Assembly: GCA_965198225.1 (NCBI GenBank)
Contig: CBDAOY010000005.1
Span: 32,001-96,000, forward strand
Origin: Terriglobia bacterium
Lineage (GTDB): Bacteria > Acidobacteriota > Terriglobia > 20CM-2-55-15
Length of the DNA stretch: 64,000 nucleotides
Reading direction: 5' to 3'
The notes under the pieces are model-generated. The model saw only the letters and a list, made by a program, of their open reading frames with translations, was not told where the DNA came from and ran no database searches. Positions 27,708 through 34,686 of the stretch are shown piece by piece. The stretch's first letter is position 1, and each line of letters begins with the position of its first letter. The translations under genes and the position numbers were made by a program.

Positions 27708-28623
27708 TCAAGTCGCGGGGACTCCCGAAGGCGCCTCCCACAGCGCGGTGCTCATGTAACGTTCGCCGATGTCGTTGAGGATCGTCACGATGGTTCCCTC
27801 TCCGATCCGTTTGGCGGTTTCATACACACCGTGCAGGTAGGCTCCCGACGACTGGCCGGCGAAGAGGCCGTGTCGGGCCAGCAGCGCGCACATGCGGGCA
27901 GAGTCGTCGCTCGAAACGCAAACCCGGTGGTCGACGACGCTCGTGTCCAGAATCTTCGGAATGATGTCGCCGGGAGACTCGAGCGGCTTCAGACCTTCGA
28001 TACCGGGAAAATCCTCGGGAATGATCTGGACGATTTCGACGCCCGGAACCTCCTTCTTCAGTCGGCGGCCGACTCCGGTCAGTGTGCCTCCTGTCCCGAC
28101 GCCGGCCACGAAATGGGTGACGCGGCCCTCCATCTGGACCAGAATCTCGGCGGCGGTCGTCTCGTAGTGAGCCAGCCAGTTGTTGTCGTTTGAATACTGA
28201 TCGCAGTGGAAGAAGCGATGGCCCTCGGCATCGACGATCCGATGGCTCTCGCGCAGCGCCTCGTCGTAGCCTTCGATCGGATCCGTCTCGATCAGCGTGG
28301 CGCCGTGGGACTGTATACGAAGCTTTCGTTCCTTGCTCGCGTTCCCGGGCACCACGATGTGAACCGGGACCTTCATCATCGCGCCGATCATCGCATAGGC
28401 GATGCCGGCATTGCCGGAGCTCGAGTCGAGCACGGCCCGGCCATCCTCCAGCTCGCCGGCCAGCAGCGCCTCGAGGAGCATCCGTCGAACGGGTCGGTCC
28501 TTGAGGCTTCCGCCAGGATTGGCGTACTCGGCTTTGGCGAATACGCGAACTCCCGGAAACTCCTCTTTGAAGCAGAGTATCTCCACCATCCGGGTGTTCC
28601 CGACCAGGCTCAACGCCGGAAAC
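27708..28623 (-). CDS. Cysteine synthase (CysK/CysM family, PLP), 3' exon
   Basis: VGNT, KAEYANPGGSLKDR (PLP lysine), SSGNAG, GVGTGGT, GQSSGA. Begins immediately after the intron 3' end. Confidence 0.92.
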
Positions 28624-28710
28624 ACCGGGTGGCCGGAGGCAGTTGCCCGCCTCCGGCTCCCACAGAACGCAGCGTGCGGATTTCCCGCACTGCGCTCTTC
28701 AGAATTGGAT

Positions 28711-30057
28711 TTACAGCACAGCGAGAGACTGGAACTCCCGATAGCGGAGAGCCAACTTGGGACGCTGTAACGGAAAGTGCAGCTGAATCCGGTTGAATAC
28801 TTCCCACCGGACGAAGCCTGCACGACTACGACTGCTGAGCATTTGGCGCCAGTAACGTTCCACGGCCCGAGCGACGTGCTGCAGAGCCCGGAGGTTCCCG
28901 GCAATGCCATAGTAGGCGTAGTGCCCGCGCAAGACTCGGTTCAGATTGTGCACTTGCTCCCGGACCGGCAAGTGACGCATTCGCCTCATCACGCCGCGTA
29001 GATGAGCCAGACTGCGTCGAAGTCGAGACTTCTCTGTTCGCAGTCCCACTCTAAAATTGCCTTTGCGATTACGCGTACAGTACAGGGTCATGCCCAGAAA
29101 ATAGATCGTCTCTGGACGTTTTCTCCCGCGCCGGACGACATCGCGCTGGGCATAGCGGCCGAATTCGACGAGCTTCGTCTTGGTCGGCTCCGGAACCAGT
29201 CCAAACTTTCCCAGTCGCTTGCGCAGAACGTTCTGGAAACGAAGCGCATCGTCCCGATATTGGAAACACACGACAAAGTCGTCGATGTACCGCACCAGAT
29301 ACGCTTCACCCTTCAGGCGTGGCCGGACCATCCGGTCAAACCACAGGTCAAGCACATAATGCAGGTACAGATTGCTCAGCAGAACGCTGATCGACCCACC
29401 TTGCGGGGTTCCCTCTTCGTTCGAATGCAATTCCCCGTCTTCGAAAACGCCCGCCTTTAACCATCGTCGTATCAGACTGATGATCCGCGGATCTCCGACT
29501 CGATGCTCCACAAAGCGGAGTAGCCATCCATGGTCTAAACTCCCGAAAAAGTTCTTCAAGTCCGCCTCCAACACCCAACTCACCTTGCATCCGGAAATCA
29601 CCTCATGGAGGGTTGCCAGTGCATTGTGGGCGCCCAGCCCAGGCCGGCCACCAAAGGAACAGGGCAAGAAGTCCTGCTCGTAGATGGCGACCAATACCTC
29701 GGCCACGCTGCGCTGAAGGGCCCGATCTTGAACACAGGGCACGCCCAGGGGACGTTTCTCCTGCTTGCCGGGCTTGGGGATATACACCCGCCGAATCGGC
29801 GGAGCGCGATATCCCTTCTGGTGAACAGACTGGAGCATTGGCTCCACCCAGACTCCGAATTCCTCCTTCGCCTCCGGTACCCTCTGACCATCACATCCGG
29901 GAGCCGTGTTGCGGGGCACTTGACACAGGTTCTTCCACACACGCTCTCGGGTGACATGATGCGCCAGTGACGTGAACCGGAGCTTTGGCTCACTCCGAGC
30001 TTTCGCCGCTATTCGTTCCAGTTTCGTTTCCATGACTGGTTGTTCCTCTCGTTGCAT
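28711..30057 (-). CDS. ltrA: Group II intron reverse transcriptase/maturase (no En domain)
   Basis: RRVYIPKPG, RPLGVPCVQDR, GTPQGGSIS, YIDD, and maturase X domain LRGHYAYY. Confidence 0.95.
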   Translation of the reverse strand: MQREEQPVMETKLERIAAKARSEPKLRFTSLAHHVTRERVWKNLCQVPRNTAPGCDGQRVPEAKEEFGVWVEPMLQSVHQKGYRAPPIRRVYIPKPGKQEKRPLGVPCVQDRALQRSVAEVLVAIYEQDFLPCSFGGRPGLGAHNALATLHEVISGCKVSWVLEADLKNFFGSLDHGWLLRFVEHRVGDPRIISLIRRWLKAGVFEDGELHSNEEGTPQGGSISVLLSNLYLHYVLDLWFDRMVRPRLKGEAYLVRYIDDFVVCFQYRDDALRFQNVLRKRLGKFGLVPEPTKTKLVEFGRYAQRDVVRRGRKRPETIYFLGMTLYCTRNRKGNFRVGLRTEKSRLRRSLAHLRGVMRRMRHLPVREQVHNLNRVLRGHYAYYGIAGNLRALQHVARAVERYWRQMLSSRSRAGFVRWEVFNRIQLHFPLQRPKLALRYREFQSLAVL

Positions 30058-30159
30058 AGAGGACCGTATCCTCCCGTTGCATGGAGCTCATGTTTCCCAA
30101 GAACGAGTCCACTTCTGCTGGCCGCTTCCCCATGTGATCGGCTCTCCCGACCTCGGAGT

Positions 30160-32012
30160 GTAGAGTCGAAAGTGGTCGGGCCGATCGGCCCTTCCACCGT
30201 CCGCTCAATCAAACGGCTCGTGCGGTTTTCCCGCAAGCCGCTTTCCTCAGTTGCTCCTCGTTCGGAATTCGCTGTGTGGCGGCAGGTGGCGGCTTCGTTC
30301 GTACCGCGTTTGGGTCTTTCGCTAAGGGAACTATCCAAGTTCACGATATCTCCGCGTTTCCCATCGCTCGCACATTCACGACTGAGTACGGGGACTTCCC
30401 CCTCCAACGGGCCTTTTGGACCCGCCAGCGCCGCTGCTCGAAGCAACGATCCGAGACCTTATGTTTGCCGTCTCGTTCCTGAGTGTAGAGTCGAAAGTGG
30501 TCGGGCCGATCGGCCCTTCCACCGTCCGCTCAATCAAACGGCTCGTGCGGTTTTCCCGCAAGCCGCTTTCCTCAGTTGCTCCTCGTTCGGAATTCGCTGT
30601 GTGGCGGCAGGTGGCGGCTTCGTTCGTACCGCGTTTGGGTCTTTCGCTAAGGGAACTATCCAAGTTCACGATATCTCCGCGTTTCCCATCGCTCGCACAT
30701 TCACGACTGAGTACGGGGACTTCCCCCTCCAACGGGCCTTTTGGACCCGCCAGCGCCGCTGCTCGAAGCAACGATCCGAGACCTTATGTTTGCCGTCTCG
30801 TTCCTGAGTACTATTCCCCGATCCGATTCCTGACACCGCGTCGGCCGGAATTTCGCTCTCGCTTATATCCGCACCTACCGCGCAGGGCTCTAGGTCGATG
30901 TTTGTCTTCTCGGTTGCCCGCCCTTTCTAGGTCTGCGGGGTGTCTGCGGGTGCCACATCATCTCGACCTTACCTTCCGCTCGGACGATACCAGGCCTCCC
31001 TGGGTCACTCGCGTCTCTTCTCCACCGTGTCGCCCGCACACACCTTGGTGCGATGGGGTGGAACCAATGCGCCTTCGCCCCAATAGTGCGGGCTCGACCA
31101 TTCCCCATCTTTGGCCGACCGGTTCATCCTCGGGATGGCTCCCGTCGATTACGACCCGGTGGTTCTCCTCATGCCCTTCAGACCCCACCTCGCGGTGGGC
31201 GCCCTGCCCTCCAAAGTTTCCGTAGCTGGCTCCAGCTTTGCCTTGGCCGTATCCGGCTTTCGCCTTCGTGCCCGTTTAGGCATCTGCACTACCTGTCTAC
31301 ACTTCGGCCAGTGAGGCATTACCCCCACTTGTTGGATATCGACCCGTGGCCTCGGGCCGAGCGGGACTTTAACCCGCCGGAAACGCGTGCTGCCAGGCAC
31401 GCACTATTCCCCGATCCGATTCCTGACACCGCGTCGGCCGGAATTTCGCTCTCGCTTCCTGACACCGCGTCGGCCGGAATTTCGCTCTCGCTTATATCCG
31501 CACCTACCGCGCAGGGCTCTAGGTCGATGTTTGTCTTCTCGGTTGCCCGCCCTTTCGTCTGCGGGTGCCACATCATCTCGACCTTACCTTCCGCTCGGAC
31601 GATACCAGGCCTCCCTGGGTCACTCGCGTCTCTTCTCCACCGTGTCGCCCGCACACACCTTGGTGCGATGGGGTGGAACCAATGCGCCTTCGCCCCAATA
31701 GTGCGGGCTCGACCATTCCCCATCTTTGGCCGACCGGTTCATCCTCGGGATGGCTCCCGTCGATTACGACCCGGTGGTTCTCCTCATGCCCTTCAGACCC
31801 CACCTCGCGGTGGGCGCCCTGCCCTCCAAAGTTTCCGTAGCTGGCTCCAGCTTTGCCTTGGCCGTATCCGGCTTTCGCCTTCGTGCCCGTTTAGGCATCT
31901 GCACTACCTGTCTACACTTCGGCCAGTGAGGCATTACCCCCACTTGTTGGATATCGACCCGTGGCCTCGGGCCGAGCGGGACTTTAACCCGCCGGCGTGC
32001 TGCCAGGCACGC
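30160..32012 (-). mobile_element. ORF-less group II intron B nested in domain III of intron A (935 nt, split by B')
   Basis: 5' GCGTG at 32012; DV AAGCGGCTTGCGGGAAAACCGCACGAGCCGTTT; DVI ending CGACTCTAC at 30160. Removal rejoins CTGATAGT|ACTCCG of intron A. Confidence 0.88.
30485..31402 (-). mobile_element. ORF-less group II intron B' nested in domain III of intron B (918 nt, contiguous)
   Basis: Near-identical to B. Flanked by GGGGAATAGT| and |ACTCAGG, and carries the uninterrupted GGGGAATAGTACTCAGG site at 30803-30819. Confidence 0.88.
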
Positions 32013-32413
32013 ACTATCAGCCAGTCTGACTTCCGACAGGCCTTCGGGTCTTCCTCGCGTTGTTGGCTTGTCCAACCCTACAAGCTCCGCTTGAACCTGA
32101 CGGATCTCCCTTGTTCCCATGAAATCCTTGGTTGCATGCCGGCGGTACGAACCCCGGAAGCACCCCAGGGCACTTGCCATTGCGTGCCCTGCGATTCCGC
32201 CTTCCCCCTAGAGCGACAGGGTCGGCTACTTCAACCACGTTCGATTTCGGGGCTATCTTTCCGTTCACTGGTGTTCCGGCCTACTCCCTCCCTGTCTACG
32301 CTTCGCAGTGTCCGTCACCGACCACCACGCAAGACTCGGTACGTGGCTGCCGGCTAGGCTCTGCCACGGCCGCCATCTCAGGCGACTGGATCTCATGCGC
32401 TTGCAAGGCGCAA

Positions 32414-32469
32414 CGCTCATGAAACTCGACGTAGGATTCTTCGACCGGTATGGTTGCCGCTAAGTTCAT
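32414..32469 (-). CDS. Cysteine synthase 5' exon
   Basis: ATG at 32469 encodes MNLAATIPVEESYVEFHE plus CG. Joining G at 28623 gives Arg and continues in frame as FPALSLVGNT. Confidence 0.85.
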
Positions 32470-33816: not shown

Positions 33817-34686
33817 TCAGCTGACTACGGTTTTCGCACAGCGAAAACCGAGCGTCACAGTCCGCAGTGAGGGTTTCGTGTAGTTCCGGTAGTTCACCGT
33901 GAGCATCCGGCTGTCGGGATCGCCCCAGCTGCCGCCCCGGAAGACGCGGTAGACGCCTTCGGCTGGGCCCTGCGGATTCTCGTCGGGACTGACGGCGTAG
34001 TACCCTCTCTCGTACCAGTCCGAAACCCATTCGCTGACATTGCCGGTGGCGTCGTACATTCCGAATCCGTTCGGGGGCAGAGATCCGACCTCGACCGGGC
34101 CGCCGGGCCAGCCAAAGTGCGCCAGAGTCGTCCGCTCGCCGCGTCCGCTCTCTTCGAAGTCGGCCGTATCGGCGACTTCGAAGTCGTCTCCCCAGGGGTA
34201 GTTCTTCCGGTCGAGGCCGCCGCGGGCAGCCCGTTCCCACTCCGCCTCAGTCGGTAGGCGCTTGCCAGCCCAGCCACAATAAGAACTGGCCTCGTCCCAG
34301 TTGACGTTGTAGGCCGGGAATCGCTCCCGACCCGCCGGAACCGCGCCCTCAACCCAATGGTAGGGAGCCGCTCGTCCGGTCGCCTCGACGAAGGCGGCAT
34401 AACGCTCGTTGGTCACTTCGTACTCGTCGATGTAGAACGAGTCGATGAAGACCAGATGAGCGGGCTGGTCATCCATCCGGGGCCGTGCCCGCCAGTTCAA
34501 CTCATCGAGCAGGTTTCGGTGGACCCGGCCGAGCCAGAATTCCCCGGCGGGAATGCGAATCATTCCGGGTTCGGCTCGTTCGGCCGGTTCTGGCTTGGAA
34601 GGTGTCTGCGCAGGGAATGGGGCAGCACTGGCGACGAAAAGAATCGCGGCAGCGAGGATTGCGAACGGCCCTCCGGCTCGACTCAT
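33817..34686 (-). CDS. FGE-sulfatase (SUMF1-like) domain protein, secreted
   Basis: EVTNERY, RLPTEAEWERAARGG, NGFGMYDATGNVSEW, RGGSW, GFRCA. Start probably MSRAGG at 34686. Confidence 0.9.
   Translation of the reverse strand: MSRAGGPFAILAAAILFVASAAPFPAQTPSKPEPAERAEPGMIRIPAGEFWLGRVHRNLLDELNWRARPRMDDQPAHLVFIDSFYIDEYEVTNERYAAFVEATGRAAPYHWVEGAVPAGRERFPAYNVNWDEASSYCGWAGKRLPTEAEWERAARGGLDRKNYPWGDDFEVADTADFEESGRGERTTLAHFGWPGGPVEVGSLPPNGFGMYDATGNVSEWVSDWYERGYYAVSPDENPQGPAEGVYRVFRGGSWGDPDSRMLTVNYRNYTKPSLRTVTLGFRCAKTVVS

Follow-up and report, generated by a model that had tools for sequence, protein, structure and literature searches.

An apparent three-level nest of group II introns in a cysteine-synthase-like gene of a sponge-associated acidobacterium

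How does a conserved enzyme gene come to hold an insert in which two long sequence units each occur twice in succession, in the order XXYY? The question is raised by a stretch of 64,000 nucleotides (nt) on contig CBDAOY010000005.1, hereafter the window, from the genome of a sponge-associated acidobacterium (source genome, G000), in which a cysteine-synthase-like gene on the minus strand is interrupted by 3790 nt. A preliminary description, made from the letters of the window alone, read the insert as a group II intron A that contains an intron B, which in turn contains a further copy of itself, B'. Here we study this locus together with its relatives, and consider it a genuine nest of mobile group II introns with a probability of roughly 0.85. 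This reading is carried by the anatomy of the insert and its exact boundaries, by empty sites, by a target motif with covariation, by the origin of B through deletion of an open reading frame (ORF) and by the recurrence of the complete composite.

Repeat finding identified two pairs of exact 300-nt direct repeats, namely 30942-31241 with 31557-31856 at a spacing of 615 nt, and 30156-30455 with 30481-30780 at a spacing of 325 nt. Together with reading of the sequence this gives the minus-strand order exon 1, A-5', B-5', B', B-3', A-3', exon 2 (Table 1), where the 5' and 3' parts of B are referred to as X and Y, and those of B' as X' and Y'. The four internal junctions read ..GATAGT/GCGTGCC, ..AATAGT/GCGTGCC, ..CTCTAC/ACTCAGG and ..CTCTAC/ACTCCGAGG, with the slash marking the junction, and because the flanking bases at every junction differ from the alternative, the boundaries are unambiguous. 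It follows from these junctions that the inner copy is bounded exactly by intron termini and that removal of B' restores the continuous B of single copies. The latter read ..AATAGTACTCAGG.., and B-free relatives of A read ..GATAGTACTCCGAGG.. across the insertion site. Hence, as in a twintron, the inner intron is complete, has its own termini and leaves a restored outer intron upon removal, and the map of three levels (A > B > B') drawn in the preliminary description holds to the base.

The repeated halves are nearly the same sequence. Y (30160-30484) and Y' (30485-30809) are 100% identical, whereas X and X' show zero substitutions and only indels with respect to the common 579-nt form of X. 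Three indels separate the two: outer X has a private 5-nt deletion between 31996 and 31995 and a private 36-nt tandem duplication (31458-31493), and X' has a private 14-nt insertion (30928-30941). Such private indels are not a product of collapse or expansion errors, which bears on the possibility that the nest is an assembly artefact, with halves of B expanded or the composite misplaced and a true locus holding one B or none. What favours an artefact is the multi-copy nature of the element, as the source genome has 27 matches for Y and 24 for X, with 17 B-containing blocks.

The host gene speaks to the same possibility. Ligated, the exons form a reading frame of 972 nt or 323 amino acids (aa). 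The gene had been called a cysteine synthase, a name that stands at the level of the PALP family (exon 2, 3e-61) and fails at the level of subfamily, the top cysM and cysKM models scoring approximately 262 bits, below their cut-offs of 344-394; we therefore refer to it as cysteine-synthase-like. Orthologues in three genomes of the same genus are 86-87% identical, free of any insert and aligned collinearly with the ligated exons through the junction, and the genome has two PALP paralogues that are 36-37% identical. The flanks are the in-frame, orthologue-collinear halves of one gene, an outcome not expected of a chimeric join. Sequencing run X1, of unrecorded library type, contains a 1554-nt contig in which 28623 adjoins 32414, a skip of precisely 3790 nt, and run X3, also of unrecorded library type, contains a contig with the same skip and one synonymous change. 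These contigs indicate that intron-less alleles exist elsewhere and that the insertion is recent or polymorphic. The change in the X3 allele, G to A at window position 32416, lies within the GAGCG word paired by A (see below) and would weaken the site for A. Expression of the gene would need only the splicing of A, with the 1853-nt B nest presumably situated in an insertion-tolerant part of A.

Freed of its passengers, A measures 1937 nt and encodes a reverse transcriptase (RT)/maturase. Its 5' domains match RF02005 with 137.2 bits (cut-off 49), and its domains V and VI (DV/DVI) match RF00029 with 47.1 bits (gathering score 40). The intron-encoded protein (IEP) shows RVT_1 (5e-29), TIGR04416 (317.2 bits, cut-off 300) and GIIM with 23 bits, equal to the cut-off; no endonuclease domain was reported in the domain search of the 448-aa ORF. 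An A-less construct, consisting of flanks only, matches C6:5959-6217 and C5:743295-743553 with 100% identity over 259 nt, by which A is exactly TTGCG...CCCGGT and lacks a target duplication. Both loci are copies, with an empty A site, of another RT-encoding intron, D.

The upstream flank in most A copies is the DV hairpin of D, at 8 nt from hairpin to cut. An A composite in a metagenome-assembled genome (MAG), G020, lies likewise 8 nt after what appears, read by eye, as the DV hairpin of a different intron. GAGCG precedes all six A 5' ends in the source genome as well as the one in G020, and the base following the A 3' end is G in eight of nine copies. A hairpin loop of A at 32215-32211, which is also a loop in the RF02005 alignment, has the sequence CGCTC, complementary to GAGCG, and is a candidate exon-binding site 1 (EBS1). 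The A site in the window, ..TTTCATGAGCG/GTTTCC, shares ATGAGCG/G with the D site, which suggests that A homed to a similar sequence when it entered the gene. The usual target of A is the position behind GAGCG, 8 nt downstream of the DV hairpin of other group II introns, and here A appears to have landed at a look-alike ATGAGCG/G in codon 19 of the cysteine-synthase-like gene.

Then what is B? Its copies are 904-935 nt long. As described before, B and B' have no RT ORF; in this mini form the ORF is absent through a deletion of 1251 nt. A 2153-nt relative, B-full, present at C5:501714-503866 and C6:343788-345941, carries an additional 1251 nt (between B positions 809 and 812), matches B with 95% identity wherever the two align and contains a 479-codon open frame with RVT_1 (2.1e-33), GIIM (1.3e-19) and TIGR04416 (392 bits, cut-off 300); both copies are intact. 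All mini copies, even those that are only 81-92% identical, are collinear across B positions 809/812. The common deletion point and the presence of B-full in the same genome thus make B an ORF-deletion derivative of an autonomous intron, a miniature of the 2.15-kb element that encodes an RT. The idea that B represents a distinct ORF-less lineage that parasitises group II introns has to be given up in that form, since the ORF-less copies share a single 1251-nt deletion relative to B-full.

A related explanation has B as an independent ORF-less parasite lineage that is mobilised by proteins of its hosts, for instance that of A, and that rebuilds its nests at each locus. It is countered by the intact RT/maturase frame of B-full, a close relative with two intact copies, and the A protein shares no more than 32% identity with that of B-full, which makes cross-mobilisation by A less likely than mobilisation by B-full. 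The mini-intron probably depends for its mobility on the B-full protein, acting in trans. As will be seen, the distribution of B offers arguments on either side, and we regard an independent parasite lineage as unlikely.

The flanks of B in all blocks end in (R)TAGT or TAAT, with TGGC as the one exception, and the base after the intron is A. We searched 16 fetched B loci with Rfam (139 kb, 33 matches at gathering score). At 13 loci a D1D4-6, D1D4-3 or D1D4-2 match precedes B by 92-292 nt; of the remaining three, two are without any Rfam match, and the third is a 5'-truncated B fragment whose locus has a match that is not counted among the 13. B does live almost exclusively inside other group II introns, the host intron being recognisable at 13 of the fetched loci. 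This would suit an independent parasite lineage, as would the fact that every A copy in the source genome carries B; at least two B copies, however, occupy sites without a recognisable intron (C5:3834 and C8:158737).

In host intron HC7 the B site precedes the first ATG of the protein frame by 60 nt, and in A it precedes the protein start by approximately 100-125 nt; it hence lies in the leader of a protein gene, most likely as part of domain IV. For both hosts there are empty sites. A B-less construct of HC7 matches seven other loci with 100% identity over 320 nt (all seven other full-length copies are empty), and seven A-type introns from G003, G005, G012 and G021, 85-89% identical, read uninterrupted through ..GATAGTACTC..; the source genome itself has no B-free A. 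One RT-encoding intron (RF02001, 114.9 bits) has eight copies, only one of which carries B. Six empty copies examined directly follow a GC-rich hairpin and a T run (C7:488449.., C9:611818.., C8:882279.., C8:1093647.., C7:1071708.. and C5:716616..), and insertion of this RF02001-type intron behind such a structure resembles, we presume, the targeting of terminators by class C introns. Host introns were also inspected for a shared hairpin ahead of the B site, an idea that was dropped because the pairing, assessed by eye, fails across hosts.

Positions 316-321 of B read ACTATT or ACTATG, and these words pair with the six bases before the cut: all six pairs are formed at 17 of 22 scored junctions and five at the other five. 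The pairing is supported by covariation at position -6 among distinct sites, where ACTATG copies follow C in five of six cases and ACTATT copies follow A or G, also in five of six. When all 899 six-base windows are ranked, the ACTATT window comes first with 48 of 54 pairs at nine distinct sites, the next reaching 43. We consider these positions a candidate EBS1. A second complementarity, between GTCTGA (B position 220) and positions -17 to -12, varies only within wobble-allowed changes, and GTCTGA is possibly the EBS2 of B. B-type introns pick their site by RNA-DNA pairing of the candidate EBS1, ACUAU(U/G), with (N)AUAGU just upstream of the cut, possibly aided by the second pairing at -17 to -12.

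This site choice offers an explanation for the insertion of B into itself. The X/Y junction of B, ..TCGGATCGGGGAATAGT/ACTCAGG, scores six out of six for both pairings, so that B brings along a homing site for itself, at which insertion would be expected to give X[XY]Y. The target motif (R)TAGT/A is present in A as well as in B, which accounts for B inside A and for B' inside B. More generally, the motif occurs in the protein-gene leader of several kinds of group II introns in addition to B, which may be how B came to home into B. The earlier interpretation of XXYY as the product of self-insertion is borne out by the X/Y junction, as it carries the same 9 nt, ATAGT/ACTC, as the B site in A.

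Could XXYY have arisen by two tandem duplications, or by unequal crossing-over, inside a single B? Recombination or slippage is needed anyway for partial forms found elsewhere (XYY, X XY and B(1-885)+B(725-918)), and the window copy itself has a 36-nt tandem duplication. The block, though, ends exactly at the first and last bases of the intron and lies at a 9-nt sequence that is identical to the B site in A, with six of six pairs with the candidate EBS1; two independent events with exactly such ends are very unlikely. Moreover, the nest at C8:158737-160383, X/XY/Y without A, has an inner copy that is 81-87% identical to the query and outer halves that are 96-99% identical, which fits insertion of a different copy. 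Altogether we find an origin by duplication very improbable. The C8 nest is a second, older self-insertion.

Self-insertion need not have been repeated for each nest. The complete A5'-X-XY-Y-A3' composite is also present at C6:839762-843511 and at G020:C24 (327-4071), where G020 is a MAG of another genus of the same family within the Terriglobia. Comparison of the three over approximately 3.75 kb shows 5-9 mismatches and a few indels, the window composite differing from the other two by 5-8 mismatches and 3-4 indels each. The G020 composite sits in a different target and has flanks that are about 84% like those of the source genome, with A parts that are 100% identical to the window. A locus with the order XYY, C5:812467-815631, has zero mismatches to the window composite, from which it departs only in having one X fewer and in lacking the 14-nt insertion. 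Near identity of the three composites, including shared variants, indicates copying as a unit, which is at odds with nests rebuilt per locus by a parasite. The composite was probably formed once, by insertion of B into B inside an A copy, and then copied as a unit rather than produced here by repeated self-homing; the finished A > B > B' may spread as one unit by retrohoming of A.

G020 has B copies, and the B-full protein is absent from it, its best match being 36-39% identical. This could be cited in favour of an independent parasite and also fits arrival of B as a passenger of A. Of 40 genomes searched, five gave matches, and three genomes of the same genus as the source genome are without B. 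The composite in G020 has two possible explanations, a binning problem or horizontal transfer between symbionts that live together; a stretch of 2028 nt is also common, at 100% identity, to G020:C9 and G000:C8:609039-611066. A string across the X/X' junction was found in one public genome-contig record, apparently G020:C24, and neither this string nor a 42-nt string of B domain V was present in JGI metagenome contigs.

The source genome is intron-rich, with 32 RF00029 matches at E up to 0.01, 24 of them above the cut-off, and 31 maturase-domain matches, and nests deeper than that of the window occur in it. C6:839762-843511 has four levels, D > A > B > B, and C5:812467-815631 reads D > A > B+Y; at both, a D maturase domain and a D1D4-4 match lie just upstream of the A composite. 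The partial forms are located at C5:812868-814096 (XYY), C4:150750-152235 (X XY) and C4:97368-98438 (B(1-885)+B(725-918)), and homologous recombination between the repeated halves may trim nests to XYY or XXY. At C5:889958-892399 and C4:150750-153771 B stands between a D1D4-2-type intron on its 5' side and A-3' on its 3' side, so that the host introns are chimeric; recombination between B copies in different hosts is the best explanation. At C4:97368-98438 and C5:3834-4942 B has a second partial 3' half and thus two DV/DVI modules, which might be alternative 3' splice sites, as described for Clostridium tetani (PMC4424553), or mere recombination scars.

We return to the assembly, for which runs X1, X3, X14 and X16 were examined as Logan contigs. 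Of 24 listed runs, 17 hold at least half of the sampled words, most of which derive from multi-copy introns. Short-read contigs in the four runs never span the nest, parts of which have no contig cover (for instance 30938-31219 in X1 and 31502-31924 in X3, X14 and X16), and they show the gene without intron, so that an artefact is favoured on this side. It is contradicted by four assembled nests in two assemblies (the window, C6:839762-843511, C8:158737-160383 and, from an independent MAG, G020:C24), by a source genome in 9 contigs without N, and by 55-nt contigs covering the X/X' junction (31378-31432) in two other runs, both from RNA libraries. With the private indels and the intact gene halves added, we deem an artefact the most improbable of the alternatives, slightly behind even tandem duplication.

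Several observations weigh against the favoured reading. Some regard the locus itself. The 55-nt junction contigs have flanks of 25 and 30 nt, less than the 31-nt criterion, and any other nest may be their source. RNA contigs that skip 325 nt (X14) or 918 nt (X16) can be spliced RNA or derive from single-B loci. No contig among the four runs joins exon to A, and both runs that cover the site, X1 and X3, show the intron-less allele. The number of B copies at the window locus hence rests on the assembly and on indirect support.

Other points concern the introns as ribozymes. The consensus 5' end of group II introns is GUGYG, from which A departs with its first bases TTGCG, fixed by the empty sites, and from which all B copies depart with GCGTGCC. 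GYGYG-like 5' ends had been attributed to all three elements, which is correct for B (GCGTG fits GYGYG, not GUGYG) and incorrect for A. Likewise, of three Infernal hits expected for DV/DVI, that of A was obtained, and each B 3' end reaches 36.9 bits (E 1.9e-5 when 918 nt are searched), a little short of the RF00029 cut-off of 40; the B 3' matches were not listed in a 9-kb Rfam search. The RF00029 alignment of B does contain the AGC triad, a 2-nt bulge and a bulged A at 7 nt from the 3' end, and a survey gives above 24 bits as its threshold for this model (PMC8919778). The 5' part of B yields only weak matches, to RF02001 (24.5 bits, cut-off 32, at 31199-31092) and RF02003 (15 bits), and folding of 12 B copies with RNAalifold did not resolve into six convincing domains or a clear domain map. 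The candidate EBS2 ties in the window control with GTTTGA (position 850), and its words are also part of the RF02001 consensus. The 5-nt loss right after the 5' end of outer B and the other private indels might impair the window copies. Finally, the usual RT active-site motif is YADD, and the corresponding block of B-full reads WADD in both intact copies. A, B and B' are predicted to be competent for splicing.

Table 1. Coordinates of the nest and its host gene in the window (the whole 64,000-nt stretch). DV/DVI, domains V and VI; EBS, exon-binding site; IEP, intron-encoded protein; a slash marks a junction.
Feature	Position	Strand	Remarks
Exon 1, cysteine-synthase-like (PALP) gene	32414..32469	-	ATG at 32469 to 5' splice junction ..CATGAGCG/
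Intron A, 5' segment A-5', 401 nt	32013..32413	-	starts TTGCG; RF02005 match 32378-32144
Outer mini-intron B, 5' part X, 610 nt	31403..32012	-	starts GCGTGCC, ends ..GGGGAATAGT
Outer B, candidate EBS1 ACTATT	31702-31697	-	
Inner mini-intron B', complete, 918 nt	30485..31402	-	X' 31402-30810 (593 nt) + Y' 30809-30485 (325 nt)
B', candidate EBS1	31087-31082	-	
B', candidate EBS2 GTCTGA	31183-31178	-	
B', DV/DVI	30570-30485	-	RF00029
Outer mini-intron B, 3' part Y, 325 nt	30160..30484	-	starts ACTCAGG, ends ..CTCTAC
Outer B, DV/DVI	30245-30160	-	placed via identity with Y'
Intron A, 3' segment A-3', 1536 nt	28624..30159	-	leader, IEP ORF, DV/DVI 28699-28624
A IEP ORF, 448 aa, RT + maturase	30057-28711	-	
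Exon 2, cysteine-synthase-like gene	27708..28623	-	stop codon included; PALP 3e-61

Elsewhere in the window, a weak Guanidine-III riboswitch-like match on the minus strand (34340-34400; 21.8 bits, gathering score 36, E 0.37), in or beside an ORF, is probably due to chance.

Returning to the nest, the locus provides a clean and recent bacterial example of how group II introns can multiply by using each other as landing sites, with exact empty sites for every layer and a readable base-pairing rule for site choice. It bears on how introns could proliferate in a genome without being lethal, a matter tied to ideas on the origin of spliceosomal introns, and leaves the known mechanism of group II introns unchanged. 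The position of the nest in a conserved enzyme gene makes splicing testable with a clear read-out, and the presence of a nearly identical composite in another genus, as represented by a MAG, hints that entire nests may be passed between symbionts that live together.

A broader reading, which we put forward tentatively and with more doubt than confidence, would be that of a layered ecosystem of introns on introns. The exon-binding sites of B would be tuned to a leader motif of at least three unrelated intron classes and of B itself. A would be tuned to the stretch behind DV, and the two would together build nests that renew themselves and reach as many as four levels (D > A > B > B). Nests would move as units, cross the genera of sponge symbionts, recombine intron halves and occasionally enter essential-looking genes. 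If so, introns rather than host genes would be the main habitat of A and B elements in a bacterium, and the target motif common to different classes may mark a conserved functional RNA element, perhaps the part of domain IV to which the protein binds.

Comparable nests have already been described in an archaeon and in cyanobacteria, and the triple nesting cannot be called unprecedented: published accounts include nests of up to five introns (PMC4424553), ORF-less twintrons (PMC2882425) and a self-inserted intron (PMC7049729). Literature searches, supplements aside, returned no description of the nest system of the source genome. The closest parallel is Methanosarcina acetivorans, for which up to five nested introns are reported, built up as introns homed time and again into other introns and offset by deletions through recombination (PMC4424553). 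According to that account the systems share site-specific homing into group II introns, including ORF-less ones, multiple levels, recombinational loss and a perpetual homing site. They differ in that M. acetivorans is an archaeon in which, as described there, the flanking exons lack coding ORFs, whereas here an acidobacterium and a conserved PALP enzyme gene are involved. Homing there is into related intron ORFs, going by the title of Dai & Zimmerly 2003, in contrast to a site upstream of the ORF in introns of three Rfam D1D4 models.

In Thermosynechococcus elongatus, TeI3/TeI4 comprise ORF-less deletion derivatives in domain IV of ORF-containing relatives (PMC2882425). B resembles these in having a single ORF deletion whose break-points agree between all copies and, as with TeI3, an ORF-containing parent, here in the same genome; in its place near the protein-gene start of ORF-containing introns, in our case probably in domain IV; and in that spread as a composite or separately is proposed in that report as well. 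The protein of a relative mobilises the ORF-less intron there, as B-full would do in trans for B. As far as that report describes it, the T. elongatus system has two levels only, its inner and outer introns stem from one ancestor and the site lies between two start codons. Our mini-intron, in contrast, also invades itself and unrelated intron classes, and the protein of its outer intron is 32% identical to that of its parent.

Trichodesmium erythraeum has a twintron of two introns in a protein-coding gene, for which sequential splicing was shown experimentally and which was called the sole bacterial twintron then known in such a gene (PMC4649490). The present case is again a bacterial twintron in a protein-coding gene, differing in its three levels and in that its splicing is a prediction. 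Self-insertion has its counterpart in lycophyte mitochondrial cox1i1149g2, an intron within its own domain IV that is hypermobile and has many extra insertion sites (PMC7049729). That element is, in the terms of its report, an organellar, two-level 'zombie' twintron, unlike the bacterial, recent and near-identical copies described here. What is new is therefore the combination: a three-level nest, with four levels elsewhere in the genome, in a bacterium and inside a conserved enzyme gene, built from a mini-intron with several intron classes and itself among its targets and from an outer intron that targets the stretch behind DV.

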